A stretch of 64,000 bases of DNA, from IMG/VR virus record IMGVR_UViG_3300047476_000972, positions 1-64,000 of that record, one strand, 5' to 3'. The position numbers and the translations under genes were made by a program. The notes beneath the pieces were generated by a model that was not told the DNA's origin, did no database searches, and worked only from the letters and a program-made list of their open reading frames with translations. Below, one piece after another: positions 3 through 10,824 of this stretch (the stretch's first letter is position 1; every line of letters starts with the position of its first letter). Source of the DNA: a virus.

Positions 3-3000
3 AACCCAACCAAGGCTGATATCGCCTCTGCAATTCCACTAGAGGACTTCCTGAAGACTCGCACCGACGCTCCAGAGGGTTGGACCAAGAACGAGGATGG
101 TTCTTTCACTTCTAAGTCTGGTCAGACTGTTAAGGCAGTTGACGCTCAGCCGGAGGGTGACTACATGGTTGAAGGCGCTGGCGAAAGCAATGCGATTGAC
201 CCTGACGTTCCTCTATTCGAAATTCGCGACAAAGACGGCAAGATTCTCGGTGTTGGCCAGAACTGGGCGGGCCTGAACAAGATTGCCATGACCTACGATG
301 CTCTTAATGGAGAGGGCGATGGCACTCCAGAAGAACCAGGCCTAGACCAGACCGCTGGCGAAGGCAGTGACTGGTTTGATAGCGCAGTTGACTTTGACCA
401 CTTATCTGATCCACAGAACTGGAGCCAGTTTAAAGACGGCGAAGCCACCTATACTTCTCCTGACGGCAAGCTAAAACTTACTTGGGAACCAGACGGTGAA
501 GGCGATGTCGGCTTCGGAGCCACCGACCTTTCTGGCATTTCTGTCGAGTACGACGGTCAGCCTGTCGGATCATTCCGAGCAACTCAGCGTGACCTCGAAG
601 AAGGCGACATCGAGGATGGTCTTAAGGATCTCCTAAAGAAGGAAAGCTGGTTCAAGCCAAGTAGCCTAGTCAAGACCGAAAACGACGGCAACTCTTACGG
701 GTTTGACACCGACAAGGGCTACGTAGAAGTAACTCCAGAATTTGACAAGAGTGGCAAGTTCATCGGCTACAAGGTTGAAAAAGAAGCTCGCGATCTAATT
801 GACGAAAACCGTGAAGGCTCTTATTTCAACACCTCTAAGTTCAAGACCAAAGAGGAAGCTCTAGCTGATGCAGAGAAGTTCGCTGAGACTCTTAACGACG
901 AAGACAAACTATCTGATCTTCTAAACGAAAGCTACATGGACGACCCTGGCTTTGACCAAGCTCCGGGTAAGGGAACCGAACTAAGTGAAGCTGGCAAGAA
1001 GATTGCCAAGGACCTAGGTGACCACAAGTTCTTCTATGAAGAAGATGCTGATGGCAATCTAACCGGAGGAGAAGCAACTTACACATCTCCAGATGGCCGC
1101 GTAGAAGCTAAGTACCGCGATGGCTCTTGGTTCGATGACGAGAAGGGCTACATTCCTTGGGACGAGATCGAGGTCTCTGTTGATGGGAAGCTTGTTGACT
1201 CCTTAGTTCGAGACAAACGAGAGTCTTGGCCTGACTTCCTTGACCGCGTTGCCGCTATGTCGGAAAACGGTCTAGAAAATCCTAACTATGCAGAAGAGAA
1301 GAAGGCTAAGCGCGAGGCCGATCGTAAGGCTCGCGAAGACTTCTATAACTCACCAGAGCAGGTAGAAAAGCGCGCACAGGCCAAATGGGAGAAAGAGCAG
1401 GCAGATGCCGCTCAGGAGCAGGCCCGCGAATCTGTTGACAAAGAGGGTCTACTTAAAAAAGTAGATGACCTAGCAAACAAGATCTTTAGTGGAGATAGCG
1501 GAGCCAGCGAAGAGTTCTGGGTGGGCGATGAAGACGAAGACGGCTACCGCAACTGGGGCGTTTACAGTGAAGATGGCGATGAAGTTGCCAGCGGAGTTTT
1601 CGGACCAACTTGGGATGAGACCGATATTGCTTCTGAAATTCGCAACGGAGTCAACGCTCACTTGGACAAGAAGCTTGATGAACTTGAGCCAGCCGCTGGC
1701 CTTGACCAGAATGCAGAGGCACCAACTAAGCCACTATCTGAAAAGCAGATGGAGCCAGCGACTGACAAGCAATATGCTTTCCTAGAAGAGCTACGCTCAG
1801 AACGTGACGGCATCTCGCCCGCAACTGAGAAAGCCATTCAAGATGCACTGGACAACCGCAACCTGACTAAAGCTCAGATGGCATCAATTCTTGGAGAGGT
1901 AACCAAGAAGCCTTTCAAGCCTGGTGTTGACCCAACCAAGCCAACTGAGCGCCAAATCAACTCACTTCAGGGCTACCTGTCTACTAAGGAACTAACTCCT
2001 GACGAGATGAACGACATTCTCGCCGAGCTTGATGCAGGGCTAGATCGTGACTCAATTGAGAAGCTCACCGCTAAGCTACGTCGTCGTCCAGACCGTCAAC
2101 AGACTGAAGGTCTTGATCAGTCAGCGGGTACCCGTTTAACAACTAACCCAGACGGGAGCTCAGAGTACTTCGGCGACGGTGCAGAAGTTGTTGTAGAGAA
2201 AGACGGTGACAAGTTCAAGGTCACGAAGTCTGCGTCTCAGTTCTTGCTAGACGAGAACATCGAACACAGCTACGAAAAAACCGAGACTTACGATTCTGAA
2301 GAAGAAGCACGTAAAGCAGCGGAAGACTTTGCAGCGACCATTGATGATCGCGACAAGCTCTACGACGAGATTTACGAAGACTGGCGCAACTCTGGTGCTG
2401 GCTTTGATCAGGCACCTGGAGAAACCAAGACTCTGTCCCCAAAGATGATGGAACCAGCTACTGATGCTCAGTACAGCTATCTAGAGGGACTCTTCGAAAG
2501 CAAGAACGGCGTTGACGCTGACACGGCTCAGGCAATCACCGAAGCTTTGGAATCTAAGAATCTGACCAAGGCTCAGGCTGGTGCATTTATTGGCAAGCTC
2601 CGCGAGCTAGGTGACAAAGAAAACCTAGGCCAATATGGCAAGCCTTCTCAGAAGATGATTGACTCTGTAAAGCGTGACGTTTACGCTAAGGGTTTGTCTG
2701 ACGCTGACCGTGAGGAAATTCTTAAGGACCTAGAAAACCGCTCAAAGGGCGATGTTTCATCTATCATCAGCATGTTGAAGGACATGGACAATGTTGCTGG
2801 CGGTATGGAGAAGTACATTGACAGCCTAGTTCAGAGTGGCGATGTTAACGCTTTGAAGCGTCTACGTGAAGATGGCCGTTTTGGAGACTACAACGTTGAT
2901 TTAGACAATGCTATTTCTAAGCTAGAGTCTGGTGACAAGGGTTTTGATCAAGCAGCCGGAAAGCAGTACGGAACATCTTGGGAGCAGATGAAGCCAGAGT

Positions 3001-3797
3001 TGGTTTCGTTGGCTGAGGATACCGAGAACAGCGATGAAAAAGGCTACGCGTTCTTAAGTAAAGAATTTGTAGAGGGCCTTGACCCAAACGATATTGATGA
3101 TGCCTACTACCTTTACTCCGAGTTGATGGATGCATACAAAGCGATGCGCCCTGAATCAGAAGAAGGCAAGGCACTAGAGGCTCGCCTGAAAAAGTCAGCT
3201 GACGACTTGCTCGCCAAGATCGAGTCCGACATGGGACCTATCGAAGCAGCTAAGCGTAACCCGGACGACATGGGAAGTACTTTTGAATTTGGTAAGGTTT
3301 TTGATGAAATTGAAGATCTAATTTCTTACTACTACCCTTCAAATGCAGACGAAATTGCCGACCAGCTAACCGACGATGATGGCGGTATTGTTGGCGATGT
3401 TCGCGGAGGCGGCTGGGAAGGTTCAGTACGTTTCAACGAAGAGACTGACAAGTGGGAAGCCCGCATGACTTCTCCTGGCCAAGACTCGGAGAACTACGGC
3501 GAAGACTTCGACTCCCTGTCTGACGCTGCCAACTGGGTTGGCGCGAGCATGGCAGACGAGAACAAGTATCTTCCTCCTCTAGAGGCTCGCCTGCTCAATG
3601 ATGGTTCGCAGGAGTCTCTAGAAGATTTGATTAAAGAGTACGGTGACGATCCAGCTGTTCTAGTTGAAAAGATTCGTTCAGCTGCAGCGTGGTTCCGTAC
3701 TACTCGTCGAAACCAAGGAGACCAGATCGCTAATAAGCTGGAAGACTACGCCGACAGGGTAGAACAGCTTAATGGCGGCACCTCCCCAAAAGCCTAG
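3..3797 (+). CDS. Giant acidic multi-module head-region protein (5'-truncated by window edge); candidate virion-packaged polyprotein
   Basis: The frame is open from nt 3 (NPTKADIASAIPLEDFLKT...) through the ORF-track ATG at 165 to TAG at 3795-3797. Very D/E-rich, with internal duplicated modules and six G[LF]DQ motifs. Lies just upstream of the protease and capsid genes. Confidence 0.75.
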   Translation, partial: NPTKADIASAIPLEDFLKTRTDAPEGWTKNEDGSFTSKSGQTVKAVDAQPEGDYMVEGAGESNAIDPDVPLFEIRDKDGKILGVGQNWAGLNKIAMTYDALNGEGDGTPEEPGLDQTAGEGSDWFDSAVDFDHLSDPQNWSQFKDGEATYTSPDGKLKLTWEPDGEGDVGFGATDLSGISVEYDGQPVGSFRATQRDLEEGDIEDGLKDLLKKESWFKPSSLVKTENDGNSYGFDTDKGYVEVTPEFDKSGKFIGYKVEKEARDLIDENREGSYFNTSKFKTKEEALADAEKFAETLNDEDKLSDLLNESYMDDPGFDQAPGKGTELSEAGKKIAKDLGDHKFFYEEDADGNLTGGEATYTSPDGRVEAKYRDGSWFDDEKGYIPWDEIEVSVDGKLVDSLVRDKRESWPDFLDRVAAMSENGLENPNYAEEKKAKREADRKAREDFYNSPEQVEKRAQAKWEKEQADAAQEQARESVDKEGLLKKVDDLANKIFSGDSGASEEFWVGDEDEDGYRNWGVYSEDGDEVASGVFGPTWDETDIASEIRNGVNAHLDKKLDELEPAAGLDQNAEAPTKPLSEKQMEPATDKQYAFLEELRSERDGISPATEKAIQDALDNRNLTKAQMASILGEVTKKPFKPGVDPTKPTERQINSLQGYLSTKELTPDEMNDILAELDAGLDRDSIEKLTAKLRRRPDRQQTEGLDQSAGTRLTTNPDGSSEYFGDGAEVVVEKDGDKFKVTKSASQFLLDENIEHSYEKTETYDSEEEARKAAEDFAATIDDRDKLYDEIYEDWRNSGAGFDQAPGETKTLSPKMMEPATDAQYSYLEGLFESKNGVDADTAQAITEALESKNLTKAQAGAFIGKLRELGDKENLGQYGKPSQKMIDSVKRDVYAKGLSDADREEILKDLENRSKGDVSSIISMLKDMDNVAGGMEKYIDSLVQSGDVNALKRLREDGRFGDYNVDLDNAISKLESGDKGFDQAAGKQYGTSWEQMKPELVSLAEDTENSDEKGYAFLSKEFVEGLDPNDIDDAYYLYSELMDAYKAMRPESEEGKALEARLKKSADDLLAKIESDMGPIEAAKRNPDDMGSTFEFGKVFDEIEDLISYYYPSNADEIADQLTDDDGGIVGDVRGGGWEGSVRFNEETDKWEARMTSPGQDSENYGEDFDSLSDAANWVGASMADENKYLPPLEARLLNDGSQESLEDLIKEYGDDPAVLVEKIRSAAAWFRTTRRNQGDQIANKLEDYADRVEQLNGGTSPKA

Positions 3798-3814
3798 CCC
3801 CCGAAGAGGGGGCT
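3785..3814 (+). other. Candidate programmed -1 ribosomal frameshift signal (C_CCA_AAA + hairpin AGCCCCC-GAAGA-GGGGGCT)
   Basis: X_XXY_YYZ heptamer at 3785-3791 in the ORF1 frame, 4-nt spacer, 7-bp stem at 3796-3814. The -1 frame is open from 3773 to 6097 with no ATG/GTG/TTG before 3917. Confidence 0.75.
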
Positions 3815-6097
3815 GAGCCTGGATTAGATCAGGACGCTCCAGATTTAGCAAGAATCTCTAGCATCCTTGATAAGTACCGCACTAAACCTGCGACTACTAA
3901 TTCTGTTCGCCCTGCAATGCCTGAAGGTGAACCAGGATCCAAAACTAATCCGCTCGAGCTTACCTCGGAGCAGTTTGACGAGAAGCTTGCTTCTGTAACC
4001 GAGACCAACAAGTCCGCGGCATCTAGCGTTCTTGCTGATGTATTAGAGAAGCTACGCACCCCTAAGAATATTCAAGCTTGGGCGCGCAAATGGGATAGGG
4101 ACGCTAATCGACCTCTCCCGGTTAACCCTGCAAGTGAGACCCACTACACAGGGCCTAACTTGCTTGCGCTAGAAAACGCAGCTTCGGAAAACGGATTCAG
4201 CGACCCTCGTTGGATGAGCGCCTCTCAGGTTGCTCAGGCTGGTGGCTCGATTCCAGCCGGAACCAAGGGTACTCAGATTCTCGTACCTAGCTTCTATGTT
4301 GCCAACCGTGATGGCAAGGTCGTTGAGTACTTTGAGTTCAGAAAAGTTACTGTTTTTAACGGTGACCAGATTCAAGGAATAAATCCATACAACGCCGACG
4401 ACAACAAGTCATATACTGCAAAGGAAGCTGTAGATATTGTTCTCGACAGGATGCGCGAAGCCGCAACTCTCCGAGATGTAGAAACTCCAGAGATCTTCGG
4501 TATTCAGCTAGATAAAGATCAAAATCCTCGCTGGTCACCAAACTACGGTAGAGATGTTGATAGCGTACGACTACCACTCCGCGCAAACTTTGATAGCGAT
4601 GAGTCTTGGTTCAATGCATTTGCTCACGAGCTTATTCACAGCACTGGTAGAACTAACCGACTTAACCGAGAAGAAGTTAAGAAGGCACTGGATGGGAACA
4701 GTAATTCCTACGCAGAAGAAGAGCTAACCGCTGAGCTAGGCTCTATGCTTCTAGCAAAGATGTTCGGGATAAATTCTGACCCAAGCAACTCGATTAGCTA
4801 TCTACTCACCCACATCAAGAACCTAGACGGCGTGAATGCCGATAAGGCCGTGACTGACGCCATGACTAGGGCTCAGCTGGCGGCGGACTACCTGCTGGGT
4901 AACGACGTTCTTCCTCAGTGGAACCCGCTCAAGACTAAGGTTGCTCCAACTCTACAGTCAGCAAGAATGGCGTCTACTACTCCAGAAGACTCTAGCTTGA
5001 ACCCAAACACTAACCCTGATTCAGTTGATGCTCCTCTAGTAGGCCTTGACCAAGCCCCGGGTAAGAAGCCTTTCAACCGTGCCAATTCAGTGTCAGATAG
5101 CAAGGACGCCAAAGAGCGAGTTCTATCTGGCCTACTGGAAAAGATTAAAGAAGGTAAGGCTCCTTGGCGTAAGCCATTCAAGGACGACGCTAACTATGCT
5201 GGTGCATTCGTTCCGCGTAACCCAGCGTCAAAGCACATCTACAGCGGTATTAACTCGATTGTTCTTCGACTACACCAAGAGCTTGCTGGGTACTCAGATC
5301 CTCGCTGGATGACATACAACCAAGCCACTGATCTAGGTGGTCAGGTTCGTAAAGGATCTAAGGGTGTTCAAATTCTTGTTCCTTACAAAAGGGTCAAGAA
5401 AGAGAAGGACTCTTCAACCGGAGAAGAGAAGGTAACTGGTAGCTATGTCACCTTCGGCGTAAAGACCGTATTCAATGTTGAACAAATTGATGGCCTAAAC
5501 CTGCCAACTGTTAAGGCTGAAGCAGGCGAACCAAAAACTCCTCTAGAGTCTCAGGATTTTATTCTGGAACGCTATCAGAAGTCAATGGAAGCCAAGGGTC
5601 TGAAGGCTCCTCAGGTTTCATACACCTATGTTGGTGCGTACGGAAGCCACTCGTCTTCTCCAAACTGGAACCCAGCTTCTGACGTCATTACTCTTCCAAC
5701 CAAGGAGCAGTTCAACAGCCCAGAGGATATGTTCGACACCATTGCTCATGAGTTAGCCCACTCGACCGGACACAAGGACCGCCTTGACCGCACCGAGCTA
5801 ACTAAGAACTACGGGACAAGCAATGCAGCTCGAGGCGAAGAAGAGCTTATCGCGGAAATTTCTTCAGCGATCCTAGCTAGCATGTTCGGCGTAAACAGCG
5901 ACTTTGACAACACTGCGGCTTATGTAAAGAGCTGGCTACAGGCACTACAGGATAACCCTGATATGGTTATGAAGGCCTCTTCTGAAGCTCAGAAGGTAGT
6001 AGACTATTTGCTAGGTATGGATCTGGGAGACTGGAGCCCTATCGAGGGTTACCGATCATCAAACAAATCTAAATCAGATGGAGACTCAGATGAGTAA
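3788..6097 (+). CDS. Tandem ArdC-like protein: 2 x (ArdC-N/DUF1738 ssDNA-binding + zincin MPTase); probably translated as a -1 frameshift extension of ORF1 (ORF-track start 3917)
   Basis: Two copies of NP(A)S..Y.G.N...L....(F/Y)SDPRWM...Q....GG....G.KG..I, each followed by HExxH (HELIHSTG, HELAHSTG) and EEL.AE..S. No SD precedes ATG 3917. Confidence 0.85.
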   Translation, partial: KSLAPEEGAEPGLDQDAPDLARISSILDKYRTKPATTNSVRPAMPEGEPGSKTNPLELTSEQFDEKLASVTETNKSAASSVLADVLEKLRTPKNIQAWARKWDRDANRPLPVNPASETHYTGPNLLALENAASENGFSDPRWMSASQVAQAGGSIPAGTKGTQILVPSFYVANRDGKVVEYFEFRKVTVFNGDQIQGINPYNADDNKSYTAKEAVDIVLDRMREAATLRDVETPEIFGIQLDKDQNPRWSPNYGRDVDSVRLPLRANFDSDESWFNAFAHELIHSTGRTNRLNREEVKKALDGNSNSYAEEELTAELGSMLLAKMFGINSDPSNSISYLLTHIKNLDGVNADKAVTDAMTRAQLAADYLLGNDVLPQWNPLKTKVAPTLQSARMASTTPEDSSLNPNTNPDSVDAPLVGLDQAPGKKPFNRANSVSDSKDAKERVLSGLLEKIKEGKAPWRKPFKDDANYAGAFVPRNPASKHIYSGINSIVLRLHQELAGYSDPRWMTYNQATDLGGQVRKGSKGVQILVPYKRVKKEKDSSTGEEKVTGSYVTFGVKTVFNVEQIDGLNLPTVKAEAGEPKTPLESQDFILERYQKSMEAKGLKAPQVSYTYVGAYGSHSSSPNWNPASDVITLPTKEQFNSPEDMFDTIAHELAHSTGHKDRLDRTELTKNYGTSNAARGEEELIAEISSAILASMFGVNSDFDNTAAYVKSWLQALQDNPDMVMKASSEAQKVVDYLLGMDLGDWSPIEGYRSSNKSKSDGDSDE

Positions 6098-6318: not shown

Positions 6319-9300
6319 ATGAACCACCTAATCGGCCGCTCTGGCGAACTAGCATTCTATGCTAACAACACTCACGGTGTAGTTATTGATACTGCCGTAG
6401 GAGCCGTTGTCGCCAGCGGTGCAGCGCTAGACCTATTTGCAGAAAACAAGTGGGAGCTTTCATCGACTCCTCTCACTCAATCAGAACAACTTCTTGCTGA
6501 CAAGGTCATAGCCACTCTAGAAGAAGACGCTATTGTTGCATCTGCTGACAGGATGTACACCATCCCTAAGTCAGCTCAGGCAGAGGCGGAAAAAGCCTTG
6601 GCTTGGCGGAAAGAAGAAGGCAGAGGCGGAACCCCTGTCGGCCTTAACACTGCCCGCACCCTCGCTAAGGGCGGTCAGATTGGCATCCGCAAGATCCGCC
6701 ACATTGCTAAATACTTCCCTCGTCACGAAGTTGACAAGAAGGGTAAGGGCTGGAAGCCAGGCGAAGACAACTTCCCGTCTAACGGACGTATCGCATGGGC
6801 ACTCTGGGGTGGAGACGCCGCTTGGCGTTGGGCACGTGCCATCGTTGAGCGCGAAGACAAAAAGGAAAACTCTGTCACTGCGGGTGGATACACTATTTCT
6901 AACTACGTTGATCAGATCAACTACCCTAAGCAGAATGAAGAGCTAAATCCTTTTAAGTACGCTCACGAGCTTGACGCAAACTACGGCCCAGAGTTCTTGG
7001 CTCGAGTCTGCCTAGATGGTTCTGGCATTGACCGACTCTACATGATCGATATTGATGGTTCTGTACACGTCTGGGATGACGGGTGTTGGGACAACCTAGG
7101 TCATGTTGATGGCGACATCTGGACATATGACCGAATGCTAGATGACGTCTATGATCTTGAGGAAAAATCTCACGTAATTATTGACCCTCAGTCTGCACTT
7201 ATGATTGCAGCGCGTATGGCTGTAGACCCATATTGCAAGACTTCTGTTTTTGACCTAGACTCTGACGAAGCGGCTCTAATGGAAGCTGGCATCGGCGGAG
7301 AAGACTGGGAATTCATTGACCAAGTCATTACTGCTGCAGCTTCTGATCAGGATGGTAACTACACTCCAGAAGAGCGTTCAGCAAATGCTGGAAACCAGCC
7401 TCGCAATGCTACCGGTCAGTTTGCCAAGGTAGGCCAGAAGGTAGCTATTGGTGGAGACGCTGCTAGAGGTTCTGGCACAATCCGAGACATTGACGGTGCG
7501 ACAGGCATTGTCACCGTCGACCTTGAAGACGGTAGATCCGTCAAAGTTGGCTCTAAGTACTTAGTACCAGCAGAAAAGGCAAACAGCCGACCAAACTCAC
7601 TTCGTGTTGATGACGCTAGCAAAGCTCCTATGGACTTTTCTGGAATCATCGGGGAGCCTCGTACTCCTCAGAACAGCAAGAAGGCTCACCTTCCGGGAAC
7701 CCTACCGAAGCTAGATGTTGATGCATTTATCAACAACTACGCGTCTTGGGTAGAGAAGGAACGCTACAAGCCAAAGAACGCGGCTGACAAAGCTGCTGTT
7801 AAAAAGCGTTGGCCAAATGCCAAGTTCACTGAGACTTCTATCATTGCAGCGGCAGAAGAAAAAGAAGAGATTCTTACTCCTTCTACTTCTGACGTAAGAC
7901 CTAGATACCTTGCCATCGTTGATCAGCAAGACCCAGAGGCAATGGTTGATCTCGTTGCTGTTATCCCTAAGACCGCTACTTCCACTACTCCTCTTGTCTA
8001 TAAGCGTGAGGGAGATAAGTGGGTTCAGGATGACCAAACTCTAGCTGACCTACGCTCGGCTACCAAACCTCCAGTAATTGAACTAGATAAAGAATCCCTA
8101 AAGGATGTCTTGTCTCAGATGGCAGAGGGAAAGCCTACAGAAGAATCTGCCCCGGAGGCTGTTGCAGCTAGCTTGCTAACTGTCTTTGATGCATTTGTTG
8201 CTGCTGGCGGCCTAGACCGCAACCGTGGCAATGCGGAAGAGCTTCGCCAATACTGGACTCGTGGTAAGGGCGCTGCCAAGATTCGTTGGGGCACTCCAGG
8301 CGACTGGACTCGTTGCGTCCGTCAACTTTCAAAGTACATGGGCCCACGTGCCAAGGGCTATTGTCAGCTTCGTCACAAGGATGCCACTGGCGTATACACT
8401 GGTAGCCGTCTAAACCCGGGCCGTCGTAACGAAACTTCTAGCCTATTTGCCAGCGAGATGGACTTAGTCCAGTCAGTAGTTGCTCAGTCCGAACTAACTG
8501 CGAGAGCAAACGACGCGAGAGAGCGTCTAGGGCTGGTCGCTGGTGCAAAAATGGAGCACGGTGCCAAGTTCAACATCCCTCTACTGATCCCAGAAGACTT
8601 GGAATCAGGAGATGGTCGTAAGTTTGTAAAGGACTCTCTGTCAGTTCGAGAGCTTCCACTTCCACTCCTATGGCAGATCAAGACTGGCGACGGTCACATG
8701 GGGTCTGTAGTAGTTGGACGTATTGATTACGTAGAAAGAACCGAAAACGGTATCGGAAATGCCTATGGCGTTTTTGATACAGGAGCATATGGTCAAGAGG
8801 CAGAGCGTCTAGTACGTAACGGATTCATCCGTGGTGTTTCTGCAGATCTAGACCAGTTCGAGGCAGAAGAAGAGAAGACTGAAAATGCCGAGGACACCGA
8901 AGACGTAGGCAAGAAAAAGCTAACTATAAATCACGCCCGTGTAATGGCTGCTACAATTGTAGCTAAGCCTGCATTCCAAGAATGCACTATCTCTATTGAA
9001 GAACAACCAGCGGGAGACCAGGAGGATGAAGTGATTCCAGTTGACGGAATATACGAAGAATCCGTCGAACAAGAATTCTCTGGCGCACCGCTAGTTGCTT
9101 CAGGATTCATTGACGGCGAGATTCCTATGACACCACCAGCAGAGTGGTTCAAGGACCCTAAGCTGACTAAGGCTACCCCGATTACTGTTGACCCTTCTGG
9201 TCGCATTTACGGACACATTGCAGCTTGGCACGTAAACCACATCGGTATGCCTCGCTCTACCCGCCCACCTCGCTCAAAGAGCAAGTATGCTTACTTCCAC

Positions 9301-10824
9301 ACTGGCGTAGTCCGCTGTGCCGATGGGACTGACATGCCAGTCGGTCAGCTAACTCTTGCTGGTGGGCACGCTCCACTAACTGCTAACGCAGCTTCTGCCG
9401 CTAAGCACTATGACGACACCGCTTCTGCGATTGCCGATGTCCACATGGGTGAAGACGAGTACGGTATCTGGTGCTCTGGCTCTGTACGTCCAGACGCAAC
9501 TGAAATGCAGATTCGTGCACTTCGCGCTTCTGCTCCTTCCGGTGACTGGCGTCCAATCAACGGCTCACTTGAGCTTGTTGCTGTTTGCCAAGTAAACGTT
9601 CCAGGCTTCCCGATTGCTCGCGCGATGGTTGCTTCAGGTAAGGTTATGGCTCTAGTTGCAGCTGGCGCAAGCATGATGGCAATCATGAAGAGCCAGCACG
9701 TAGCGACTCTATCTGAGCGTGCACACAACCTAGCCGAGCTCTCGGCTAATGCTCCTGACCTACGCTCTCGCGTTAAGTCAGCTAAGAAGGCTGTAAAGAA
9801 GCAGGCTATTATTGCCGCTGCTACTAAAGCAGAGGAACTAAAGACCCGTGCTCTAGTTGCTGCAGCTGTTGCCGAGCTAGCTAAGTTCTCCGAAGAAGAG
9901 AGATCTGAACTTGCTGACAAGGGCTTCGCGCTTCCAGACGGTTCTTACCCTATTCGTAACGAGCAAGATCTACGTAACGCAATTCAGGCATATGGACGTG
10001 CAAAACGCGAGAAGCGTGTTACCGTTCGCAAGCACATTGTTAAGCGAGCCAAGGCTCTTGGTAAGGCATATCTAATTCCAGACGAATGGAAGTCAGCCGG
10101 ATCAACCGAGGCTGCTACTATTGTTGCTTCGATGCGCTCTCGACTAGCGGAGTTTGCAGAAGCTCCAGCCAAAGAAATTTCTGATGCTGACCTAGAGAAG
10201 CTCAAGGATGCTAAGCAGGAAGCTGACAAGCAAACTGAAGAAGAGATCAAGATTGCTGAAGACATCCGTACAGGTAAGACCACTGCTAAGGAAGTCTATG
10301 ACGCAGAGGGTCGCAGTAAGTACACCCCAAAGACTCAGCCTCGTGATGCTAAGGGAAAGTACCGTAAGGTCCTTGCTCGTCTAAAGCAGAACCTAGGTGT
10401 AGCTGGTCTTCAGAAAGCCCTAGAAAAAGTAGAAACTGCCGAAAACCTAGAGTTTGCTGGTGACTACGTAAACTCGGCTAAAGCCAGCAGTGAGCTACTA
10501 GGGATGATTGATCGTCTAGACACTAAGGCCCTAAACCCTGAGTCTCTAGAGAACGTCCGCTCAACCGCGGCCGAGCTCGGCAAGACCATTGCCAACCTTC
10601 CATTGCCATTCGGCAAGGAAGCTCAGAAAGTTAGATTTAGCGATCTACCTGCCGGACTAAAGACACTCATCGATGGGATGATTTCTCGAGTCGAAGCAAA
10701 GATCGGTAAAGAGGACGCAGACGTTGCAACCGCAAATCTGAAGTCCTTCATGTCCGGAGCAGATGTCTATTCTCAGGCTGAAATTCAGTCAGAGATGAAC
10801 ACCCTGCTCAGACTCCTTACCTAA
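6319..10824 (+). CDS. Multi-domain capsid maturation (prohead) protease
   Basis: Central protease-like segment ESGDGRKF...LPLPLLWQ...GH...VVGRI...RGVSADLD...AATIVAKPAF. Additional phage head domains: IAWALWGG; YWTRGKGAAKIRWGTPGDWTRC; DUF6582-like ALPDGSYPIRNEQDLRNAI. Directly upstream of the capsid gene. Confidence 0.75.
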   Translation: MNHLIGRSGELAFYANNTHGVVIDTAVGAVVASGAALDLFAENKWELSSTPLTQSEQLLADKVIATLEEDAIVASADRMYTIPKSAQAEAEKALAWRKEEGRGGTPVGLNTARTLAKGGQIGIRKIRHIAKYFPRHEVDKKGKGWKPGEDNFPSNGRIAWALWGGDAAWRWARAIVEREDKKENSVTAGGYTISNYVDQINYPKQNEELNPFKYAHELDANYGPEFLARVCLDGSGIDRLYMIDIDGSVHVWDDGCWDNLGHVDGDIWTYDRMLDDVYDLEEKSHVIIDPQSALMIAARMAVDPYCKTSVFDLDSDEAALMEAGIGGEDWEFIDQVITAAASDQDGNYTPEERSANAGNQPRNATGQFAKVGQKVAIGGDAARGSGTIRDIDGATGIVTVDLEDGRSVKVGSKYLVPAEKANSRPNSLRVDDASKAPMDFSGIIGEPRTPQNSKKAHLPGTLPKLDVDAFINNYASWVEKERYKPKNAADKAAVKKRWPNAKFTETSIIAAAEEKEEILTPSTSDVRPRYLAIVDQQDPEAMVDLVAVIPKTATSTTPLVYKREGDKWVQDDQTLADLRSATKPPVIELDKESLKDVLSQMAEGKPTEESAPEAVAASLLTVFDAFVAAGGLDRNRGNAEELRQYWTRGKGAAKIRWGTPGDWTRCVRQLSKYMGPRAKGYCQLRHKDATGVYTGSRLNPGRRNETSSLFASEMDLVQSVVAQSELTARANDARERLGLVAGAKMEHGAKFNIPLLIPEDLESGDGRKFVKDSLSVRELPLPLLWQIKTGDGHMGSVVVGRIDYVERTENGIGNAYGVFDTGAYGQEAERLVRNGFIRGVSADLDQFEAEEEKTENAEDTEDVGKKKLTINHARVMAATIVAKPAFQECTISIEEQPAGDQEDEVIPVDGIYEESVEQEFSGAPLVASGFIDGEIPMTPPAEWFKDPKLTKATPITVDPSGRIYGHIAAWHVNHIGMPRSTRPPRSKSKYAYFHTGVVRCADGTDMPVGQLTLAGGHAPLTANAASAAKHYDDTASAIADVHMGEDEYGIWCSGSVRPDATEMQIRALRASAPSGDWRPINGSLELVAVCQVNVPGFPIARAMVASGKVMALVAAGASMMAIMKSQHVATLSERAHNLAELSANAPDLRSRVKSAKKAVKKQAIIAAATKAEELKTRALVAAAVAELAKFSEEERSELADKGFALPDGSYPIRNEQDLRNAIQAYGRAKREKRVTVRKHIVKRAKALGKAYLIPDEWKSAGSTEAATIVASMRSRLAEFAEAPAKEISDADLEKLKDAKQEADKQTEEEIKIAEDIRTGKTTAKEVYDAEGRSKYTPKTQPRDAKGKYRKVLARLKQNLGVAGLQKALEKVETAENLEFAGDYVNSAKASSELLGMIDRLDTKALNPESLENVRSTAAELGKTIANLPLPFGKEAQKVRFSDLPAGLKTLIDGMISRVEAKIGKEDADVATANLKSFMSGADVYSQAEIQSEMNTLLRLLT

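Follow-up and report, generated by a model that had tools for sequence, protein, structure and literature searches.

Polyvalent proteins occur widely among phages and conjugative elements, and the autoprocessing of such proteins by their MPTase domain was predicted in the searched passages of Iyer, Burroughs, Anand, de Souza and Aravind 2017 (PMC5512222). In the systems of T4 gp21, phiKZ gp175 and SPN3US gp245, proteins packaged in the head are processed at a short consensus motif as maturation proceeds, and the removal of propeptides or linkers precedes ejection (PMC5694885, PMC10052503). The ArdC protein of R388 is a free-standing protein of 297 residues that contains a single-stranded DNA-binding N-domain followed by a Spartan/IrrE-like metalloprotease domain, and its protease activity was found by González-Montes et al. 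to be dispensable for anti-restriction, with its substrate not identified (PMC7213743). The present analysis concerns a giant head-region polyprotein encoded at the start of the IMG/VR virus record IMGVR_UViG_3300047476_000972, a linear record of 77.5 kb (CheckV completeness 45%) of which the first 64 kb (64,000 nucleotides) are called the window. The polyprotein was found to contain eight copies of a G-[LF]-D-Q motif, together with a predicted −1 frameshift and two ArdC/MPTase units in the shifted frame. A probability of about 0.4 is given to the reading that a retrovirus-like logic operates here, in which the frameshift-rationed MPTase of the upstream ArdC unit (U1) cuts a polyprotein delivered by the virion into separate anti-defence effectors at G-[LF]-x-Q. 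The themes known from other systems are polyvalent proteins and processed head cargo, and to these the finding adds a specific candidate substrate motif and a candidate protease rationed by frameshifting.

The protein resembles the polyvalent proteins described in the same passages (PMC5512222) in being giant and multidomain, in containing ArdC-N and MPTase-PolyVal domains and in being located in a phage head module, and its relatives add ADP-ribosyltransferase, ParB-like and GNAT domains. It differs from them in the defined, lineage-variable motif, in an N-terminal anchor domain and in the −1 frameshift that would add the MPTase units, and those passages contain no site motif. The consensus motif of T4, phiKZ and SPN3US ends in Glu and is common to capsid, scaffold and ejection proteins, whereas the key residue here is Gln, and the capsid and protease proteins carry no conserved G[LF]DQ. 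R388 ArdC stands alone, whereas here a frameshifted polyprotein ends in two tandem units, of which unit 1 was placed in a separate clade. In retroviral Gag-Pol, the abundant structural polyprotein gains a protease-containing extension through a −1 frameshift at X_XXY_YYZ with a structure downstream of it. The locus is like Gag and Gag-Pol in that both products carry the sites of the putative protease and the long form would be made by means of a heptamer and a structure. The likeness is one of analogy only: the candidate protease is a zincin inside an ArdC unit, the virus is a double-stranded DNA tailed phage, and in two related loci (L013 and L014) the long form lies in the zero frame.

The G[LF]DQ motif was found eight times in one reading path, with six copies in open reading frame (ORF) 1 and two copies in the −1 frame, which is the frame of ORF2 (Table 1). 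An earlier reading of the letters alone, here called the first-pass annotation, had listed eight copies lying between modules, one of them ahead of ArdC unit 1 and another separating the two ArdC units, and both the six-frame scan and the positions bore this out. The single further six-frame match in the 64 kb was found at position 77, in a non-coding frame of ORF1, and a relaxed pattern searched over the entire 77.5-kb record gave nothing outside the ORF1/ORF2 reading path. From the composition of the 2032-residue path, 0.058 copies were expected, and the maximum reached in 20,000 shuffles was two. The spacing between copies was 97-407 residues. The codons were found to vary between copies (GGC/GGT/GGA, CTA/CTT/TTA/TTT, GAC/GAT and CAG/CAA, respectively), and the motif is therefore conserved at the protein level; on this point too the codon listing agreed with the first-pass annotation. 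Copy 7 was located 10 codons past the slippery site and 32 codons ahead of the ORF2 ATG, and would therefore be translated only after the −1 shift. The sequence SIDQESG of the capsid protein was considered as a ninth site and was rejected, as it was not conserved in L007 and L008. A literature search on GLDQ/GFDQ in phage returned nothing relevant.

Table 1. Coordinates, in the window, of the motif copies, the frameshift signal, the ArdC units and the neighbouring genes (pLDDT, predicted local distance difference test).
Feature	Coordinates	Strand	Remark
Copy 1, PGLDQTAG	339..350	+	ORF1 model residues 47-50, pLDDT<50 segment 34-55
Copy 2, PGFDQAPG	948..959	+	ORF1 model residues 250-253, low-confidence segment 248-260
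Copy 3, AGLDQNAE	1698..1709	+	ORF1 model residues 500-503, segment 496-512
Copy 4, EGLDQSAG	2109..2120	+	ORF1 model residues 637-640, segment 634-660
Copy 5, AGFDQAPG	2400..2411	+	ORF1 model residues 734-737, segment 731-746
Copy 6, KGFDQAAG	2940..2951	+	ORF1 model residues 914-917, segment 911-925
Copy 7, PGLDQDAP	3821..3832	+	Extension model residues 13-16, pLDDT<50 segment 1-24
Copy 8, VGLDQAPG, linker between the ArdC units	5042..5053	+	Extension model residues 420-423, segment 383-472
Predicted −1 slippery heptamer, C_CCA_AAA, with the ORF1 stop two codons further on	3785..3791	+	ORF1 ends ...TCC CCA AAA GCC TAG
Hairpin, 8-bp G+C stem (CCCCC/GGGGG), 5-nucleotide loop, 3 nucleotides past the heptamer	3795..3815	+	
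−1 frame extension, two ArdC/MPTase units	3773..6097	+	Open frame; ORF2 ATG at 3917
ArdC unit 1 (U1-type paralogue; ArdC-N and zincin MPTase)	3995..4924	+	HELIH at 4625-4639
ArdC unit 2 (canonical)	5087..6037	+	HELAH at 5747-5761
ORF1, cargo part of the giant head-region polyvalent protein	3..3797	+	5′-truncated by the contig start
ORF3, 1501 residues, head maturation protease (about residues 942-1183) and scaffold-like tail	6319..10824	+	No G[LF]DQ
Major capsid protein, acidic N-terminal extension of about 250 residues	10950..12974	+	No conserved G[LF]DQ

A total of 29 homologues were found, of which 23 were full-length at 44-77% identity and contained 6-9 copies each, and one truncated homologue contained 3 copies. 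In an alignment of 24 sequences (mean column identity 42%), the G, D and Q columns were invariant at several sites, and at copy 1 the P-G-x-D-Q column was invariant in all 24 homologues. Over 159 distinct instances, the flanks were found to contain Asp or Glu at position −3 (59%) and Pro at position −1 (36%). The Gln was followed by D/A/K, then by A/P/V and then by G/P/K, with Asp (47%) and Lys (13%) at the first position. The fullest form of the motif is [DE]-x-x-G-[LF]-D-Q-[DAK]-[AP]-[GP].

The more distant clades were found to contain variants of the motif. The loci L010-L014 contained G-F-A-Q-[EAK]-[PA]-G at orthologous sites (up to about 20 copies), the homologues P0027 and P0028 contained [EQ]-G-[LF]-G-Q, and P0031, P0032 and L023 contained D-L-[DN]-Q, while L009 and P0030 contained just a few copies of S-[LF]-[DN]-Q, a degenerate motif. 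At the site orthologous to copy 4, the distant clades contained EGLGQ/EGFGQ, ELNQ or DLNQ. The core common to the variants was small-[LF]-x-Q-x-[APV]-[PG], in which Gln was the sole residue invariant in all. Since the variants change in concert within each lineage at orthologous sites, one trans-acting, lineage-specific reader is implied.

The structures of ORF1 (residues 67-1264, mean pLDDT 72) and, separately, of the extension were modelled with AlphaFold2. All six ORF1 motifs were found in coil segments of pLDDT<50 that separate folded modules, and six of the seven low-confidence segments of at least 13 residues in the ORF1 model contained a motif. Both motifs of the extension were also located in low-confidence segments, that of copy 8 being a linker of 90 residues. 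For the folded modules of ORF1 no Pfam family was found, and when the ORF1 model was compared with the PDB by Foldseek no match reached E<=0.001, with weak Whirly/PUR-alpha-like hints for the beta-alpha modules. A small beta-sheet-plus-helix module was found to recur at 700-940, 2130-2390 and 3300-3500, ending in ...[FY]D[ST].[ED][ED]A...A..[FW]A.

The 24 homologues were cut at the motif and the pieces were clustered. The ends were found to be constant, with the anchor at the N-terminus and the modules B180 and C275 at the C-terminus, and the middle was variable. Cassette families were inserted, deleted, swapped and duplicated as entire motif-bounded units. The insertions duplicate the motif at both ends, as would be seen if the motif were a junction left by cassette recombination, and the invariance of Gln in all variants would suit a modification of this residue (deamidation or transglutamination) or a host protease as the reader. 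These origins are nevertheless improbable, as the synonymous codons vary freely, which makes DNA micro-homology a weak explanation, and the motif is kept at orthologous sites at 44-50% protein identity with concerted lineage variants, which points to a reader specific to the phage lineage.

Among the relatives, the cassettes were found to include an ADP-ribosyltransferase in L011 and a ParB-like DGNHR module in L023. The former (L011:17692-22641; extension residues 663-846; PF03496, ADPrib_exo_Tox) forms a cassette of the frameshift extension with GFAQ on its flanks. Such enzymes of freshwater phages were interpreted as 'Trojan horse' toxins against grazers (PMC6802176), and the head-polyprotein context in L011 suggests a virion-delivered effector instead.

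The end of ORF1 was found to contain a slippery heptamer followed by the presence of a G+C stem (Table 1). The folding of the hairpin region gave −28.7 kcal/mol over 71 nucleotides (z −2.66), and the reading after a −1 slip is PKSLAPEEGAEPGLDQDAP. An ending of ...PKA-stop or ...KKA-stop was found in 28 of the 29 homologues. Nine further loci retained the heptamer, the stop codon and the CCCCC-loop-GGGGG hairpin with a varying loop; the signal-bearing loci were L003-L011 and L023, and the heptamer was A_AAA_AAA in L009 and L023. The signal was kept across clades with just about 30% protein identity, and about 10 codons past the frameshift site each examined clade contained its own variant of the motif. 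The loci L013 and L014 were found to be inverted in this respect, as the parts were fused in frame (4801 residues), the long form was in the zero frame and a −1 slip would end after two codons. A programmed −1 frameshift is thus predicted and plausible, with heptamer, stem-loop, open −1 frame and conservation all present. Because the signal is conserved across the loci, ORF1 and ORF2 were treated as one polyprotein with a short and a long form, and the single long product from ORF1 and the −1 frame that had been supposed earlier is plausible by this route.

The motifs are probably inter-cassette processing sites of one kind or another. The first-pass annotation had read them as cleavage sites, reminiscent of viral 3C-like specificity, or as capsid-docking tags. 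This idea survives, because the motif was conserved in the 23 full-length proteins and all eight copies were in pLDDT<50 coil rather than in folded cores, bounding cassettes as expected of either. The 3C-like analogy was not supported. The motif is like the sites of 3C, 3C-like and NIa enzymes in that an invariant Gln in a short motif recurs between polyprotein domains. The 3C enzymes prefer Gly, Ser or Ala after Gln, whereas here the expected small residue was often replaced by Asp or Lys in the proportions given above, and the resemblance to 3C and NIa sites carries no evolutionary link. A search of the record for such an enzyme with PF13365 (Trypsin_2) gave 0 matches with positive controls, a result that covers one Pfam family in a record of 45% completeness.

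The same traits could belong to a docking motif that is never cut and is present once per cassette, which would bind the capsid interior, the scaffold, the portal or a DNA-associated partner, or recruit a host factor after entry. The disordered context, the acidic upstream flank and the downstream Pro/Gly are traits of short linear motifs, and lineage-specific co-variation fits any binding partner. The N4 virion RNA polymerase and plasmid ArdC/TraC1 are, according to the searched passages, delivered uncleaved (PMC5512222). Targeting would already be served by the conserved N-terminal anchor domain, however, the copies after the frameshift site and between the ArdC units are more easily explained by the release of unit-sized proteins, and no protein was seen whose repeats would match those of the motif as a receptor. 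Docking without cleavage was therefore regarded as unlikely.

If the motifs are cut, the favoured candidate enzyme is encoded in the extension itself. The extension was found to contain two ArdC-N (PF08401) and two MPTase-PolyVal (PF18818, E 2e-48, two stretches) domains. The HELIH and HELAH sequences were each followed by the presence of a downstream EEEL/EEL helix, so that HExxH...E is intact in both units. Unit 2 matched the solved ArdC structures 6I89/6SNA over its full length (E 4e-43, residues 5-303 against 11-284). An ArdC/MPTase extension was found in all motif-bearing loci with enough downstream DNA; for the GLGQ clade (P0027/P0028), viral and metagenome scans for the extension returned N-terminal fragments alone.

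When 29 ArdC units were placed in a maximum-likelihood tree, a single clade, U1 (support 100/99), held the upstream unit of every tandem extension, and this clade was confined to motif-bearing lineages. The downstream (U2) units clustered with those of L024, P0037 and P0038 and with plasmid ArdCs. The longest U1 branch was that of the L009 lineage, in which the motif is degenerate. The loci L024, P0037 and P0038 contained an in-frame ArdC of U2 type alone (56-58% identical), and no motif was found in them, the homologous pre-ArdC linker included. Plasmid polyvalent proteins likewise contained the U2 type alone. The simple rule that MPTase presence equals the motif was rejected, as these three have an MPTase without the motif. 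The link was refined to the U1 paralogue because the tree separates U1 from the canonical U2, and the association of U1 with the motif is correlative. The predicted-disordered leader before canonical ArdC units (window 4925-5086 and the linkers of P0037, P0038 and L024) was found to keep (F)RM(M)A..TP..SS[LI]NP....S[VI]DAP, even in the motif-less relatives, and this stretch may be another functional linear motif.

In the proposed mechanism, the polyprotein would begin with the N-terminal anchor and continue with variable cargo cassettes, to which a −1 frameshift would add two ArdC units. It would be packaged or ejected, and the motifs in the flexible linkers would be cut endoproteolytically to give cassette-sized proteins, two free ArdC proteins among them. 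The enzyme would be the zincin MPTase-PolyVal of the divergent upstream unit U1, found in the frameshift product alone, so that the protease would be rationed by frameshifting as in Gag-Pol. The scissile bond could be the one after Gln or, for a zincin, Gly|Leu/Phe; zincins usually prefer a hydrophobic P1′. That the cutting enzyme is the frameshift-delivered U1 MPTase has close to an even chance.

The other protease encoded nearby is the HK97-type prohead maturation protease of ORF3, which could cut the sites inside the procapsid. The giant protein gene was found between the portal and the protease/capsid genes, in the head module, and the processing of ejection proteins by prohead proteases at consensus motifs has precedent (PMC5694885, PMC10052503). 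Giant proteins that share the anchor domain and are without a detected MPTase were also found to carry punctuation-like repeated motifs of other kinds, namely VQS..Q..EEDLG (9 copies) and EDLP (5 copies; between GNAT acetyltransferase repeats) and [IM]IMDPP[KM] (5 copies), in L053:9884-18829, L036:1197-12476 and L085:5697-13040. The prohead protease is a weak candidate all the same, because the ORF3 product and the capsid protein are without G[LF]DQ and carry another motif. In none of the loci did the portal, ORF3 or capsid protein contain a copy, and neither the strict nor the relaxed motif was found in ORF3 or in the capsid protein of 7 related phages. The metagenome-assembled Actinomycetia phage DSL-LC01, the one exception in a family otherwise without cultured members, contained a giant protein of 3289 residues without the motif and without MPTase, yet its prohead protease was 58% identical, against 51-58% in the motif-bearing clades. 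Cutting of the cargo by the ORF3 protease is thus doubtful.

The other motif, hydrophobic-[VIT]-A-[SAG], was found in the portal, ORF3 and capsid proteins and was absent from the cargo. In ORF3 it was found 14 times against 2.0 expected, and in ORF1 and ORF2 it was found 0 times. The homologue P0004 contained 5 copies against 1.2 expected for its entire length, and all five were in the anchor domain. Examples are ALVASGG in the capsid protein and NALVASARQ and MTASAL in the anchor (domains of L003-L092), often beside variable linkers, and many of the sites were kept down to DSL-LC01. Assemblin-type sites have the form (V/L)-x-A|S. The hydrophobic-[VIT]-A-[SAG] sites resemble these and may well constitute the motif of the prohead protease.

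The anchor domain itself is a conserved domain of about 290-410 residues that corresponds to the missing N-terminus of ORF1, and it matched no Pfam or PHROGs family. In 280 IMG/VR stretches it was found at the head of giant proteins, whose lengths range from 1.4 to more than 4.8 thousand residues, and the 3289-residue protein of DSL-LC01 begins with it, the sole match among GenBank phages. The domain contained LP.GHP, TASA, W..DPR and RRRDR.GRFA, followed by the presence of very diverse downstream cargo (L015-L092; L002:7801-8700). From the position of the gene, a role of the anchor domain in head targeting is suggested.

Several observations weigh against the reading in which U1 cuts the polyprotein. 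The AlphaFold2 model of the extension docks neither motif onto an MPTase. No such motif was found in the MPTase polyvalent proteins of plasmids and other elements, so that the specificity would be particular to U1. As L013 and L014 are fused in frame, rationing by frameshift is not universal. U1, the motif and the frameshift possibly share one ancestral origin, and the number of independent events is therefore small. The punctuation-like motifs of the MPTase-less giants hint that a protease common to all these phages could do the cutting.

The motif is a concrete candidate substrate for two protease candidates encoded a few kb away. If U1 does cut at it, an MPTase-PolyVal/ArdC protease would for the first time have a defined substrate motif, with motif and protease co-evolving between phage lineages, and the cargo would have a processing system of its own in addition to that of the prohead protease. 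The motif would also permit the automatic parsing of giant ORFs into effector cassettes in abundant uncultured freshwater actinobacterial phages, and the ADP-ribosyltransferases of freshwater phages would be recast as possible virion-delivered cassettes.

The region was found to contain three large ORFs on the plus strand, ORF1, ORF2 (3917-6097) and ORF3. Residue 1 of ORF1 aligned at about residue 297 of the homologues, so that about 296 N-terminal residues are missing. A circular join of the record, in which ORF1 and a P-loop kinase ORF would form one open frame over the junction of end and start, was rejected: the homologues, which align from residue 297, have nothing in common with the kinase, and the record itself is linear and a fragment. 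The kinase ORF (GLPGSGKST, polynucleotide-kinase-like) was found at record positions 77069-77561, beyond the window, and is cut short by the 3′ end of the record. Circularisation puts it by chance in the frame of ORF1, which mimics a fusion that the homologues do not support. Among GenBank phages, neither tblastn with ORF1 nor megablast with the region gave a match, and the ORF3 protease region gave no match by phmmer against PDB sequences. The major capsid protein was found to be 68% identical to that of DSL-LC01 and more distantly related to the capsid proteins of Microbacterium, Arthrobacter, Gordonia and Mycobacterium phages.

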